Source: a virus (lineage: Duplodnaviria > Caudoviricetes). From it: DNA of 64,000 bases. The DNA is taken from IMG/VR virus record IMGVR_UViG_3300021400_003144; one strand, 5' to 3'. The notes below the pieces were generated by a model. It was not told the origin of the DNA. It did no database searches and was given only the letters and a program-made list of their open reading frames with translations. Each line of letters opens with the position of its first letter. Within the stretch, counting starts at the first letter, position 1. The position numbers and the translations under genes were made by a program. Below, piece after piece: positions 18,689 through 33,830 of the stretch.

Positions 18689-18717
18689 TTGACAAAGTTT
18701 TGAAAGTTTGTTATAAT
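18689..18717 (+). promoter_or_regulatory. Consensus sigma70/sigmaA promoter for tRNA cluster
   Basis: TTGACA-17 nt-TATAAT with TG extension. Confidence 0.85.
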
Positions 18718-18787: not shown

Positions 18788-18827
18788 CTAAGGTTTATGT
18801 GTGCCGAAAGAAAAACACATACTTTAG
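18788..18827 (+). repeat. Conserved hairpin copy 1 (copy 2 at 18967-19006)
   Basis: aaggtttatgtgt-gccgaaagaaaa-acacata. Confidence 0.7.
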
Positions 18828-18831
18828 ACAT

Positions 18832-18904
18832 CGCGGGATGGTAGCAGTGGTAGCTCGTCAGTCTCATAAGCTGAAGGTCGATGGTTCAAGTCCATCTCCC
18901 GCAA
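18832..18904 (+). tRNA. tRNA-Met(CAT), initiator-like
   Basis: cgcggga/tcccgca with C1:A72 mismatch; loop ctcataa; T arm gatgg-ttcaagt-ccatc. Confidence 0.85.
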
Positions 18905-18966
18905 TTATCTAATGTTAATTAGATAATTATTATTCATGTTAAAGTTTCACTTTAATGCGTTTAATG

Positions 18967-19006
18967 TTAAGGTTTATGTGTACCGAAAGAAAAACACATA
19001 ACTTAA
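18967..19006 (+). repeat. Conserved hairpin copy 2
   Basis: aaggtttatgtgt-accgaaagaaaa-acacata. Confidence 0.7.
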
Positions 19007-19089
19007 ACATGTATTTGGAAAAACCCTTCTGATAGGGATTACATTCGGATACTCTGACCATTGAGCTAAATGTCCATAATACATGTTTA
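19004..19089 (+). ncRNA. Putative small RNA antisense to tRNA 5' half (copy 1)
   Basis: 12-bp closing stem; AACCCTT..ATAGGGATTA hairpin; 19046-19075 complementary to the 5' part of the downstream tRNA. Confidence 0.55.
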
Positions 19090-19092
19090 TAA

Positions 19093-19166
19093 AGACTCTT
19101 AGCTCAGCTGGTAAGAGCATCCGGCTCATAACCGGACGGTCCTGGGTTCAAGTCCCAGAGAGTCTA
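19093..19166 (+). tRNA. tRNA-Ile2/Met(CAT)
   Basis: agactct/agagtct; tccgg-ctcataa-ccgga; ctggg-ttcaagt-cccag. Confidence 0.9.
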
Positions 19167-19201: not shown

Positions 19202-19648
19202 ATGAACTTTATAGACGAAGTAAAGCAGTGGGGGTTGTACACCAATTCTATTGGGTGGAACTTTAATGGAAGAGCGTCAAGACGTGAGTATTGGATGAGC
19301 GTGCTATTCTATTTTGTGCTTAGTTTTGTAGCAAACATAGCACTAGGACTTGTGTTTGGTATACTTGGTGGTGTGCTTGGAGCATTAAAGCTAAAGGCAG
19401 CACTTGGTCTTCTAGGTATGGCTAACACAGTAATATCAATGATAATATTTATTTACATAACAAGTAGAACACTTCCATTGGCAGTAAGAAGATTGCATGA
19501 CATTGGAAAGTCAGGTTGGACATATCTTTGGTGTACTTTAGGATCTTTTATTTGTGGTATAGGAGCAATAGTATTTTTAATATTTGCACTTAAAGAAGGT
19601 GATGCTGGTGATAATCAGTATGGACCTAATCCTTTAAATGCAAATTAA
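19202..19648 (+). CDS. DUF805 family membrane protein
   Basis: FNGRASRREYW, AVRRLHDIGKSGW, GDNQYGPNP. Confidence 0.9.
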   Translation: MNFIDEVKQWGLYTNSIGWNFNGRASRREYWMSVLFYFVLSFVANIALGLVFGILGGVLGALKLKAALGLLGMANTVISMIIFIYITSRTLPLAVRRLHDIGKSGWTYLWCTLGSFICGIGAIVFLIFALKEGDAGDNQYGPNPLNAN

Positions 19649-19882
19649 AAATTATAAATCTTTATAAACTTGTGAAAAGACATCTATTTTAATAGGTGTC
19701 TTTTTTTTTGTTGAAAGAAAAGATTATAGTTTAATTATAACATTATAGAAATAGAATTGCATAGAATATATTTTAATCTTAGCGGATACAGGTTTAAGGC
19801 AGGGTAGATTAAAAAAAGAAAATTATTAATCATTTCAATGTAATTGTGATATAAATAATAAAATAAGTGAGGTAATTATATT

Positions 19883-25351: not shown

Positions 25352-25427
25352 TGAGATGTAGCTCAGAGGGCAAGAGCAGATGATGCTTAAGAATCATGTG
25401 TCGTGAGTTCGAGTCTCACCATCTCAG
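25352..25427 (+). tRNA. tRNA-like RNA with atypical 8-nt anticodon loop
   Basis: tgagatg/catctca, normal D and T arms; atgat-gcttaaga-atcat. Confidence 0.65.
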
Positions 25428-25446
25428 CTAGGCGCTAAGCCTTATA

Positions 25447-25675: not shown

Positions 25676-26284
25676 ATAGAAGTCATTAATATGGTAGTGA
25701 GTTTAACTCAGTGAAGTCATCTTAATCAAATGGCTGAGACACGATTCGTAAGAAGCTAACTTTTAGTTAATGGGGGTACTCTTAACTGATGGTCTTGGAA
25801 TACAGTGATGTGTTTTGAGGTAACAGCAAAATGGTTGTGCGGCTCAGGATTGTGGTACTATATTAATCGCCAGTTAAAGCAGCATTCTCATGGTTCCCGC
25901 AATAGACGCTCCAGTGGAGAATAACCCTGATGCCTATAGATTGGTAGTCTATAGGAGATGCAAGTAAGGGAAATACCAAAACAAGGGAATTTGTCGTGAT
26001 ACTATTGAAAGATAGCTATAACATGAGTTTGGTGTACAAGTAGCTCAAGACAGTAATTCTAATGATCAATTGGAATTTTCCAATACAAGGAAAAATAATC
26101 TGAATGATGGGTGAAAGTTGTTGGTAGTCAGTCCAGCGGCAGAGTTGGTACTTAGTACTGGGGCAAAAAGCTATAGGGTCGCTCTCTATGGTTCAGGTTT
26201 GTCTCCTGTGTAGCTTAATAAACTGGAAGTTTAAATGTAGCAGGCGGAAACGGCAGACTCATTACCATATTAATGACTTTTATA
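25676..26284 (+). ncRNA. Large ornate ncRNA, probably ROOL
   Basis: ~610 nt closed by ~25-bp terminal helix (aagtcattaatatggtagtgagttt / agactcattaccatattaatgactt); tRNA-cluster context; 3' part tctgaatgatgggtgaaagttg...gcaaaaag..agggtcgctc resembles ROOL as recalled from memory. Confidence 0.65.
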
Positions 26285-26648: not shown

Positions 26649-26894
26649 TAATTAAGGTCTATCCTGCTCGTCTTAACTGGGTTGAGTAGGGGAGAGAAAG
26701 AAAGCTCTAGTATAGGCTGTGGTTCTATTAAAATGAACTACTACGAAAAGAGTCAGGAAATCTGAATGATACGTAGTGCTGTAAGGTTAGAAACTACAGT
26801 GTGGGAGGGACTTATAGGGCAGAGTTAACGACTCTGAGACGCTTCCTAATAAATGCACCGTGCAACTCGGTAAAGCCTATGTAGACCTTAATTA
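26649..26894 (+). ncRNA. Unclassified ~245-nt structured RNA
   Basis: Perfect 13-bp closing stem taattaaggtcta/tagaccttaatta; inner ataggct/agcctat; T-loop-like accg-tgcaact-cggt. Confidence 0.55.
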
Positions 26895-26897
26895 ATA

Positions 26898-27000
26898 TGG
26901 AATGTAGCTCAAACAGGTAGAGAGCTTAGCAAGATTTTTCTTGTAAAATGCTAATGCTTATGCAGATACATTGATGGTAGTTCGATTCTACCCATTCCAT
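26898..27000 (+). ncRNA. tRNA-like RNA with rebuilt anticodon domain
   Basis: tggaatg/cattcca, D arm gctc..gagc, T arm ggtag-ttcgatt-ctacc; non-canonical middle. Confidence 0.65.
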
Positions 27001-27084
27001 TTGCTAACTGTAGTTGGCAAAGTTGTTCATTTTTTATAAACCTCATTAGGTGGGAACTGGTAAATACAGTTCCCATTTATTATC

Positions 27085-27952: not shown

Positions 27953-28340
27953 GGGGTAGTACTGGTTTCGACGGGGTACTACAAGTTAAATAAGCATGCA
28001 GATGGTGTCAGTGAACATCTTAAAAAACATTGGCAAGAAATAAAGTTCAATCAGAACAGACCAGTAGCGATGGCTGCTTAATCCCTTTGTAAGGGATACC
28101 ATCTAGGATTTAATCCTATAAAGCATTTAGTAGCGGTGTGTACCCTAACGCTAGATGCCTAAAAGTAAAGTACTCAAGATTGGTTTAATGAGTGTGATAA
28201 CTAGTCTCTGAAAACACTCTGAGGTAGTCATATGGAGGCGCTGTCCACCAAGTGACGCTTTATAAATAGTAAAACCAGACAAGCATGTAGAAAGTTTAAT
28301 GGAAGTGTTTCGGACAGGGGTTCGATTCCCCTCTACTCCA
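27953..28340 (+). ncRNA. ssrA: tmRNA
   Basis: 5' ggggtagtactggtttcgacgggg; 3' gacaggggttcgattcccctctactcca; tag frame 28046-28081 FNQNRPVAMAA*. Confidence 0.92.
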
Positions 28341-28440
28341 TGAGCGGTTTAAATGAACTGCTAACCGGTAAGGGTTCCATGTATACATCCGGTCAGAAAA
28401 TGGAACATGGTGGTGGACATAGACGGTTGAGTCTATAAAA

Positions 28441-28591: not shown

Positions 28592-28780
28592 AATGTGGTG
28601 GCGGAATAGACACTATACTGGGTACAGATAGTGGTAAAGCATATAGAGAGGCATTAAGACTTCGGTGACATATGCAATAGTAGACGCTATGATTGTCATT
28701 TCAAGATGATGCAGTAACTAAGAATTGATACTGTCAGTTAAAAAGCAATTCATGTAAGGTGCAAATCCTTATCCACGTTA
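28592..28780 (+). ncRNA. tRNA-Leu-like scaffold with large D-loop insertion
   Basis: aatgtgg/ccacgtt; tggcggaatag...gtagacgc split by ~70 nt; gtaagg-tgcaaat-ccttat. Confidence 0.55.
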
Positions 28781-29390: not shown

Positions 29391-29493
29391 GGGAATATAG
29401 CTTAAAGGAGTAGAGCTTAGCAGGGGATGCCCGTCGTAAAACTTGGAGGAGACATCCAAAGAGTTGATGATAGTTCAAATCTATCTATTCCCG
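29391..29493 (+). ncRNA. tRNA-like RNA with rebuilt anticodon domain (paralog of 26898-27000)
   Basis: gggaata/tattccc; gagcttagca...gtaaaa...ttgat shared; gatag-ttcaaat-ctatc. Confidence 0.65.
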
Positions 29494-30006: not shown

Positions 30007-30068
30007 ATTACAAGAAGAATGGGTAAAGTGAATCAAGATTGTTAGCTTGACTATTCTACTGAATTTAT

Positions 30069-30145
30069 TTCTCAATAGCTCAGATGGGAGAGCAGTTGAC
30101 TAGCTATAAGTCAAAAGGTCGTAGGTTCGAGTCCTACTTGAGGAA
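30069..30145 (+). tRNA. tRNA-Asn-like scaffold with altered anticodon arm (central CTA)
   Basis: ttctcaa/ttgagga; ttgact-agctata-agtcaa; gtagg-ttcgagt-cctac. Confidence 0.65.
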
Positions 30146-30188
30146 TGTAGAATAGAGCTATTAAAATTTGACTATTCTAATAATATTT

Positions 30189-30259
30189 TATTGGGAACAT
30201 AGATTAAGTAAGAACCCTTATATAGGGATTAACTAACCAATTGAGCTATGCTTCCAATA
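30189..30259 (+). ncRNA. Putative small RNA antisense to tRNA 5' half (copy 2)
   Basis: tattgg/ccaata closing stem; AACCCTT..ATAGGGATTA; 30233-30255 complementary to the downstream tRNA-Asn 5' end. Confidence 0.55.
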
Positions 30260-30262
30260 TAA

Positions 30263-30336
30263 GGGAATATAGCTCAGCAGGTTAGAGCATCTGACTGTTA
30301 ATCAGAGGGTCATATGTTCAAGTCCTACTGTTCCCG
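30263..30336 (+). tRNA. tRNA-Asn(GTT), weak T stem
   Basis: tctga-ctgttaa-tcaga; T stem atatg/cctac has 2 mismatches. Confidence 0.75.
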
Positions 30337-32257: not shown

Positions 32258-32296
32258 AGGCAATGAAATAGGGTTTTAAATAGGTTTATGTACCTA

Positions 32297-32415
32297 AGTG
32301 TATATAGAAATCAGTACATATGGAAGCTCTATGACTGGACCGACTGTTCCAGTCCAATAGCTTCCATATCTCAATAAAAGAAGATTATATACATACAAGG
32401 ATTTTAGTATACACT
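32297..32415 (+). ncRNA. RT-associated ncRNA unit 1
   Basis: Closing IR agtgtatatagaaatc/gattttagtatacact; AATCAGTACAT; 52-nt hairpin 32318-32369; conserved 37-nt 3' block. Confidence 0.75.
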
Positions 32416-32441
32416 AAATAAAAAATAGTACATGCACTATT

Positions 32442-32558
32442 TGCTAAGTAGGAATCAGTACATTAGATTCAGGTATACCTGCAACGATTGTCACAGGTCA
32501 ACCTGAATCTAATCTCAATAAAAGAAGATTATATGCATGCAAGGATTTATGCTTAGCA
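32442..32558 (+). ncRNA. RT-associated ncRNA unit 2
   Basis: Closing IR tgctaagtaggaatc/gatttatgcttagca; AATCAGTACAT; 52-nt hairpin 32462-32513; conserved 37-nt 3' block. Confidence 0.75.
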
Positions 32559-32576
32559 TTTATTAAGAGAGTAGAA

Positions 32577-33830
32577 ATGGATAAGAACAAATTTGAAGTT
32601 GAATTTAGGAATAATGAACATTGGGATGCATCTTATGAGCGTCTGATGTTGAAGAAATTAACACAAGAAGAAAAAGATGAACTGTGGAAGCTAAGTAATA
32701 TATACAAAGAAGATATAATTAGTCAGATAATGAATGGAACATATACATGGTCAATTCCTAGAAAGCTCAAGATTGCAAAGCATGAGAGCACTAAGAAGAG
32801 AATCGTTTATATGTATTCAGTTAAAGATAGATTTGTACAAGGAGTGTTATATAGAACACTTAGTGCATATTTTAAAGACAGTTTAAGTAATAACTGTTTC
32901 AGTTATAAGAGAGATGTTAGTACTTCTAGTGCTATTGATTATATAAAAGATAACAGAACAAAAGAATTGAGCTATGGTGTTAAAACTGATATACATGCTT
33001 ATTTCAATAGTGTATGCAGAGAAAAAGTAGAAAGTGCTATTGATGAAATAACAGAAGGCTGTGAAGGTCTTAATAAAACATTAAAGAATTTAATGTTAAA
33101 TGATACAGTTCTTTGGGAAGGCAAAGAAATACAAGAGTGGAAATCACTTATACCTGGAAGTCCTTTAGGAAGCTTTTTTGCTAACTGGTGTTTAAAAGAG
33201 TTGGATAGAGAGTTTGATAAGGCTGGAAAGGTATATGCAAGGTACAGTGATGATATAATTGTACTTGAAGATAGTGAAGATAAGTTAAAAGATGACATTA
33301 AGATAATACAGAGATACATAGCAGATTTAGGGTTGGAGCTTAATCCTGATAAATATAAATGGTTTAAATCTGGAGAGGACATAGATTTTCTAGGACTTAG
33401 GCTTAATGATAATGGTGTTATTGACATTTCTGACCATGCTAAGCAGAAGATGAAAAAGCAAATACACAGATGGTGTAGAAAAGGCAGAATGGAAATAGAA
33501 AGAGATGGAAAAGAGTTTAAAGATGTAGCTCGTAGAATAAATAGAAGGCTTAATAGAAAGAATTTCAAGTGCTATATTGATAATGAAGCAACATTTGGGT
33601 GGTGTGCATATGCTTTTCCTAGAATAACAACAGTAGAGTCATTAAGGGAATTGGACTTATACACTAAAGAAAGACTTAGAGCATTAAAAACTGGTAAGAA
33701 TAACAAAGCTAATTATAGGAAGATGCAGGAGGATGAGTTTAAAGACATTGGTTGGGTTAGCCTAGTTCAGCTATATTATCTATTTAAAAAAGATTTTGAT
33801 TACTATTGTGAAGTTATAGAGTTGCTATAG
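32577..33830 (+). CDS. Reverse transcriptase (group II-like / unknown-group class)
   Basis: KKRIVY..KDRFVQ, KTDIHAYFNSV, IPGSPLGSFFAN, YARYSDD, LNPDK, IDFLG, thumb GWCAYAF. Confidence 0.93.
   Translation: MDKNKFEVEFRNNEHWDASYERLMLKKLTQEEKDELWKLSNIYKEDIISQIMNGTYTWSIPRKLKIAKHESTKKRIVYMYSVKDRFVQGVLYRTLSAYFKDSLSNNCFSYKRDVSTSSAIDYIKDNRTKELSYGVKTDIHAYFNSVCREKVESAIDEITEGCEGLNKTLKNLMLNDTVLWEGKEIQEWKSLIPGSPLGSFFANWCLKELDREFDKAGKVYARYSDDIIVLEDSEDKLKDDIKIIQRYIADLGLELNPDKYKWFKSGEDIDFLGLRLNDNGVIDISDHAKQKMKKQIHRWCRKGRMEIERDGKEFKDVARRINRRLNRKNFKCYIDNEATFGWCAYAFPRITTVESLRELDLYTKERLRALKTGKNNKANYRKMQEDEFKDIGWVSLVQLYYLFKKDFDYYCEVIELL

Follow-up and report, generated by a model that had tools for sequence, protein, structure and literature searches.

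Why should a tRNA gene be preceded by a small RNA unit that reads antisense to the 5′ half of that same tRNA? This question is raised by a phage-like element, of which we analysed a 64,000-nt stretch (the window) lying at one end of a 282,865-bp contig with a sheep-rumen origin read from the study label. The window carries 11 tRNA-type genes including a tmRNA, as well as a ROOL RNA, cell-wall-binding repeat proteins and a UG26 reverse transcriptase (RT). The closest related RT (53%) sits in a Lachnospiraceae MAG, and we infer a Lachnospiraceae-type host. No cultured relative of the element was found; INPHARED and PLSDB contained no relatives, and scans of IMG/VR returned scattered single matches with neither relatives nor tandem units among them.

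The first-pass annotation had described an 86-nt element with a 12-bp closing stem, a hairpin and then an antisense segment, and folding confirmed this architecture at 19004-19089 (z −4.6 against shuffles). The outer stem, P1, has 12 perfect base pairs and four further pairs past a 1-nt bulge, and the stem of the inner hairpin is formed by 19024-19027 and 19034-19037. The reverse complement of 19046-19075 aligned with the adjacent tRNA-CAT (19093-19165) at 24 identities in 30 columns, in agreement with the match originally reported. The hairpin region with its flanks (the handle) occurs at exactly two sites in the window, 19022 and 30212, where shuffles gave an expected mean of 0.2 and reached two sites in one case out of 100; a position weight matrix (PWM) scored both copies at 33-35 bits against a null maximum of 17. 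The second site belongs to the unit that had been noticed at 30189, so the recurrence of the architecture holds. The anticodon arm of the adjacent tRNA-CAT matches that of Lachnospiraceae tRNA-Ile2, which makes it an Ile2 (lysidine) type, an assignment that we take to be established knowledge for this sequence type.

Table 1. Features of the two guide units and the surrounding tRNA operon (window coordinates).
Feature	Position	Strand	Remarks
Sigma-70-type promoter with extended -10	18689..18717	+	called from its 12/12 consensus match only; same hexamers in orthologue L047
tRNA-iMet(CAT), first gene of the operon	18833..18905	+	
P1 closing stem, 5′ arm, copy 1	19004..19019	+	12+4 bp
CRISPR-type repeat core	19020..19045	+	4-bp hairpin 19024-19037; putative 8-nt crRNA tag 19038-19045
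Guide (spacer), 30 nt	19046..19075	+	antisense to tRNA positions 1-30; host-type tRNA-Ile2(CAU) is the best predicted target
P1 closing stem, 3′ arm, copy 1	19073..19089	+	overlaps the last guide bases; ends 3 nt before the tRNA
The element's own tRNA-Ile2(CAU)	19093..19166	+	no encoded CCA; putative escape allele
DUF805 gene, end of the operon	19202..19648	+	
Terminator behind DUF805	19674-19705	+	
Copy 2, stem-closed unit	30189..30259	+	repeat hairpin 30215-30227; tag 30228-30235; 20-21-nt guide 30236-30256
The element's own tRNA-Asn(GTT)	30263..30336	+	changed at D-loop positions 16/17 and at position 3, which all lie within the footprint of copy 2

Because the operon is framed by a 12/12 sigma-70 promoter and a terminator, the plus strand is likely the transcribed one, and this promoter should drive the iMet tRNA, the guide unit, the Ile2 tRNA and DUF805. 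Hairpins with a purine-rich loop precede both tRNA-iMet (18790-18826) and the guide unit (18968-19001); they are kept with stem changes in the orthologous locus L047 (1690-1722 and 2160-2188) and are absent in L147. Could they be a boxB-like antitermination or protein-binding site? At tRNA positions 5/68 (19097 and 19161), the Ile2 of the window has a U5-A68 pair where the host and sister alleles have C5-G68, a pair that serves as a TilS determinant in E. coli, and the change may affect lysidine formation.

Four further units were reached through the neighbouring proteins, giving six copies in total, and three related lineages carry the unit, with neighbouring proteins about 44-77% identical. 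L147 has a single unit before Ile2, some 45 nt past a stop codon. L047/L148 has two near-identical handles (the 19-nt core is identical), repeated with a 57-nt period and enclosed by a single P1 ahead of Ile2, each followed by a different segment. In L049 one unit is found at the copy-2 position, with tRNA-Asn absent and a weak P1 (z +1.0), and in the sister lineage L050 a tRNA-Asn that keeps the consensus D-loop has no preceding unit. The sequence of P1 varies with its pairing kept through double-sided changes (15 bp in L147, 11+5 bp in L047). A covariance model together with the PWM revealed no further copies in the window or the related loci.

The first-pass annotation had itself named an origin that would refute its reading, namely a decayed inverted copy of a tRNA gene on the minus strand. 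A pattern built from the handle and the D-arm does match minus strands of ordinary tRNA-Lys and tRNA-Arg genes in metagenomes. However, the minus strand of copy 1 fits the tRNA model in its 5′ half only (18.8 bits, below the cut-off) with no tRNA homology beyond it, the handle is unlike the corresponding anticodon/T region of either neighbour, it is also seen as a tandem and in a place where no tRNA follows, and the vicinity has no strong promoter on the minus strand. We therefore give this origin almost no credence. A reading of the handle as a reversed T-arm was also rejected: the base that would pair with the T-loop is not conserved, and the likeness is a coincidence, since most of the 43 metagenome matches of the pattern fell on the minus strands of ordinary tRNAs, and the others were unrelated.

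A Class 1 CRISPR repeat, and not a new RNA class, is the best explanation of the handle. Direct repeats separated by unique spacers are present in L047/L148, and in the window the unit is solitary. All six copies share a short 4-bp hairpin followed by a constant ATT, as in a Cas6-type substrate, with a variable loop and a T-A pair that becomes a wobble; genuine Clostridia arrays share this ending of a short hairpin and an ATT tag. The tandem layout, the hairpin and the ATT ending together suggest a Cas6-type repeat. The repeat is not invariant over the full 8-nt tag: the loop and tag positions 4-8 vary, and conservation of the tag is confined to its first 3-4 bases, which sets it apart from ordinary repeats. 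Two of the three Rfam matches of L047 were CRISPR-DR36 and CRISPR-DR60, both sub-threshold (E 5-8). Arrays with the handle repeat were found in none of 201 Lachnospiraceae or 301 Clostridia genomes, and no near-perfect protospacer was present in phages or in 251 genomes of the phylum. The guides are antisense to a tRNA in all copies that have a target, and the target flanks differ between orthologues, as for a guide that is antisense to RNA and works without a PAM.

A protein-free antisense RNA or tRNA modification guide unrelated to CRISPR would account for the strong predicted duplex and the stable closing stem, and no cas gene was recognised among the window proteins scanned. It predicts neither the tandem repeat-spacer layout nor the 6-nt mismatch register described below; moreover, Rfam gave no significant box C/D or H/ACA match, the orthologue alignment A3 contains no conserved box, and the mismatches are not wobble-biased. 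This alternative appears highly improbable, and the CRISPR repeat remains the better description of the handle.

The targets of the guides were analysed against 270 tRNAs. The best tRNA match of the copy-1 guide beat 100 of 100 shuffles, with scores of 24-24.5 for Lachnospiraceae Ile2 and for the sister-lineage tRNA-Asn, 18.5 for the neighbour and a null maximum of 17.5. The L147 guide was also best on host Ile2 (reached by 2 of 100 shuffles), whereas three of the six guides (L047a, L047b and L049) had no significant tRNA match in this set. The original proposal, a guide-like RNA that joins a constant handle to a variable segment aimed at a tRNA, is thus supported in its outline, with the handle now best explained as a CRISPR repeat and half of the guides lacking a significant match; the link between the handle and tRNA complementarity, for which the first-pass annotation had asked, likewise holds for the other three copies only. 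When every sixth position was ignored, Ile2 was the clear top match in host tRNA sets (n=37 and n=29) for copy 1 (20 vs 15.5 and 13.5) and for L147 (21 vs 14.5 and 12.5). For L147 it was also the top ungapped match in 3.5 Mb of unrelated loci (21 against shuffled maxima of 14-16). The best-fitting host Ile2 allele occurs in only 5 of 301 Lachnospiraceae genomes.

The suggested comparison with host tRNAs proved informative, as copy 1 pairs better with Lachnospiraceae Ile2 (−41.8 kcal/mol) than with its own neighbour (−34.6 kcal/mol). On host Ile2 it leaves mismatches at guide positions 6 and 26, two wobbles and one 1-nt bulge, and on the neighbour tRNA mismatches at 6, 11, 25, 26 and 30; within the guide footprint, the element's own tRNA-Ile2 differs from the host allele at positions 1, 5, 6, 16 and 20a. 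The foreign allele likewise paired better than the own one for L147 (−23.8 vs −16.8), L047b (−16.8 vs −10.6) and copy 2 (−26.2 on the sister Asn vs −19.0), that is, in four of four testable cases. For L147, the own-tRNA alignment string is penalised by an aligner without guide-side bulges, and the duplex energies apply there. Since the guides favour foreign alleles, co-variation between the antisense part and the neighbouring tRNA is absent, and at diagnostic positions the guide follows the host or sister-lineage allele. For the same reason, it is unlikely that the unit mainly serves to protect or modify the neighbour tRNA or to control its maturation. The allele bias would also be explained by an ancestral tRNA gene of host-like sequence, and pairing of the guide with the own tRNA is still predicted.

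The guide could also act in cis: if the 5′ arm of P1 were cut or lost, the guide of the precursor would be free to pair with the tRNA that follows it, and would gate the maturation of that tRNA. In structure predictions, removal of the 5′ arm raises the number of guide-tRNA pairs in copy 1 from 7 to 25 and in L147 from 0 to 22. However, no such switch is predicted in L047 (0 vs 0.1) or in copy 2 (19 vs 19), and a cis function is at odds with guides that prefer foreign alleles and do not co-vary with the neighbour. We consider it very unlikely.

The main independent evidence for such a guide comes from the spacing of the mismatches. In Class 1 backbones, a Cas7 thumb inserts at every sixth nucleotide and leaves that guide base unpaired (PMC11127173). 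With the register counted from the canonical 8-nt tag and with best-scoring targets chosen for four guides, 6 of 14 mismatches fell at positions divisible by 6 (P=0.006). The enrichment persisted with the majority host allele as the target (6 of 16, P=0.013) and in the two long guides (5 of 9, P=0.003), and was lost with assumed tags of 5-7 and 9-11 nt (P>0.5) and with the own tRNAs as targets (P=0.17). L147 contributes mismatches at 6, 11, 12, 18 and 24 on host Ile2, and its guide is offset by 3 nt from that of copy 1 on the tRNA. The sample comprises only 14 mismatches and is largely driven by L147, a single guide supplying four of the six periodic ones. Within the limits of this small sample, the register would be the signature of a guide held on a Cas7/Csm3 backbone and selected on a host-type target. 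In a type III-B complex, the binding seed lies at the crRNA's 3′ end (PMC8376896). Against its own tRNA, copy 1 has additional mismatches at 11, 25 and 30; these include non-flipped positions, and position 25 lies within the 3′ segment that forms this seed.

The strongest competitor holds that the unit is an old footprint: the spacer behind the repeat would be an inverted copy, taken long ago from the neighbouring tRNA gene while that gene was still host-like. The spacer would since have drifted, with only the repeat and P1 under selection, as Cas6 punctuation of the operon or as a decoy RNA. This is consistent with the decay of three of the six guides, with L047b mismatches on invariant tRNA positions, and with the loss of tRNA-Asn and the weak P1 in L049. 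Neutral drift, however, predicts no every-sixth mismatches in two orthologues offset by 3 nt, and the common core of the guide persists across lineages with the protein divergence given above. We regard this history as rather unlikely, and continue to favour a functional guide.

Which tRNA such a guide would meet differs between the two copies. The best target of copy 2 is the tRNA-Asn of the sister lineage L050, and no Lachnospiraceae Asn fits, so that competition between elements is the best reading for this copy. It can be extended to all units as pure inter-element competition, in which the guides would attack the tRNA-operon transcripts of co-infecting related phages and not the host tRNA pool. 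Copy 1 fits the sister Asn almost as well as host Ile2 (ungapped, the Ile2 of L147 is best), Ile2 5′ halves identical to those of the host recur in other phage-like tRNA arrays, and mini-arrays typically target related viruses (PMC11656645). On the other hand, a guide matching a host-identical Ile2 would encounter the host tRNA first, and L147 scores higher on a host allele than on all phage tRNAs in the comparison (21 vs 19 and 17.5). As a complete explanation it is improbable, and host Ile2 remains the best predicted target of copy 1. The arrays in question belong to a Lachnospiraceae MAG (G001, L195-L204) with several low-GC contigs carrying large phage-like tRNA arrays, 94 tRNA matches altogether; two of these contigs have the host-identical 5′ halves.

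A single non-coding cluster of the window contains the ROOL RNA (25683-26273, 308 bits), a weak RAGATH-33 match (26666-26773) and the tmRNA (27953-28343). Two tRNA-like genes (30068-30146 and 25352-25428) have enlarged anticodon loops, and their counterparts in L050/L051 are normal (Ile-TAT in L051), possibly a second route to AUA decoding in the group. Atypical, enlarged anticodon regions are also seen in the tRNA-like RNAs at 29391-29493, 26898-27003 and 28596-28780, the first of which is conserved in L050 and L096. In the sister lineage, three tandem minihelix-like units, each with an acceptor-like stem and a T-loop-like hairpin, lie between tRNA-Ser and the tmRNA (L050 457-715, L051 2840-3095). 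The UG26-type RT at 32296-33830 (PADLOC 1e-83), followed by a HipA-like kinase gene, is preceded by two long hairpins, each with a near-identical repeat of about 36 nt behind it. A retron-like origin of the unit through this RT, 2 kb behind copy 2, was rejected, as the upstream repeats are unrelated to the handle. RAMP genes or arrays were present in none of the four MAGs holding related RTs.

Taken together, we favour, with moderate confidence, a model in which the small RNA is a solitary (delocalised) CRISPR repeat-spacer unit within a tRNA operon of a giant rumen phage-like element of Lachnospiraceae type, and its crRNA steers a Csm complex onto a rival tRNA allele, which leaves the adjacent variant to escape. 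The model draws on sequence, structure, conservation, allele preference and mismatch periodicity, from which we infer all processing and targeting steps. The unit would be co-transcribed from the strong promoter at 18689, with P1 keeping the guide from pairing with the neighbour tRNA in the precursor, as predicted for copy 1 and L147 but not for copy 2. A Cas6 would cut at the base of the repeat hairpin, in copy 1 putatively after 19037, and leave the 8-nt tag. RNase P cleavage before the tRNA and 3′ trimming would make the other end, so that a second repeat would be unnecessary. The resulting crRNA of about 38 nt may load into a putative type III (Csm) complex of the element itself, which would bind the 5′ half of the rival allele or its precursor: host tRNA-Ile2 for copy 1 and the tRNA-Asn of a sister element for copy 2. 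Csm3 would then cut or sequester the rival tRNA, presumably free of cyclic-oligoadenylate signalling if the cyclase is dead. AUA accounts for 651 of the 1100 Ile codons of the element (49 per 1000 codons) and is thus its main Ile codon, so a replacement would be needed if host Ile2 were removed; the adjacent tRNA, less well matched to the guide notably in the 3′ seed, would sustain AUA decoding. It counts against the model that a mature, modified tRNA is a hard target.

In its fullest form, a giant phage with its own signalling-dead type III complex and with solitary guides processed from a tRNA operon would destroy the only AUA-decoding tRNA of the host and supply a mismatched replacement, encoded 17 nt behind the guide; this stronger claim we put forward tentatively, at somewhat less than even chances. 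It suggests an undescribed module that cuts the host's copy and supplies its own. It has long been asked why tRNAs are carried by large phages, and the usual answers are codon supply and the replacement of tRNAs cut by host defences. If true, our model reverses this logic, with the phage side removing a host tRNA and substituting its own, a programmed takeover of decoding through RNA-level cut-and-replace. A mature structured RNA would then also be the natural target of a type III system, and the maturation of a single crRNA through tRNA processing would occur in nature. The literature covered, which was incomplete, contained no description of a phage crRNA directed at a host tRNA.

Among known systems, the unit resembles the virus-borne CRISPR mini-arrays and single repeat units in having one or two repeats and spacers away from a cas operon on a mobile element. 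Those carry the repeat of the host, and most of them are directed against related viruses or serve as decoys (PMC11656645), whereas the repeat of our unit was not found in arrays of the Lachnospiraceae and Clostridia genomes searched, its predicted target is a tRNA, and it probably serves the element's own effector. The target-and-replace logic is shared with CRISPR systems of huge phages, one of which targets host sigma-70 and encodes its own, and another glycyl-tRNA synthetase (Al-Shayeb 2020, PMC7162821). However, these systems use array spacers against protein genes, and here a solitary guide against a tRNA lies directly before the replacement gene and is proposed to have an RNA-targeting reader. 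The delocalised crRNAs of CAST I-F and V-K, which direct DNA transposition with a PAM (PMC11656645), also combine an atypical repeat and a mismatch-tolerant spacer outside an array, directed at or near tRNA genes; in our unit the would-be PAM differs between orthologues, whose registers are offset, and no transposase is implicated. The unit also resembles type III-A (Csm) crRNAs, with a hairpin repeat, an 8-nt tag, a 6-nt periodicity, a length of 28-38 nt and no conserved PAM, from which it differs by its partly conserved tag and by a 3′ end set by the tRNA and the closing stem instead of a second repeat. In CreTA, CreA works through type I Cascade to repress a promoter, and CreT uses codons to sequester tRNA. 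The unit shares with such CRISPR-like regulatory RNAs the degenerate repeat, the partly matched spacer beside the gene concerned and the link to tRNA availability, but its guide pairs with the tRNA body itself.
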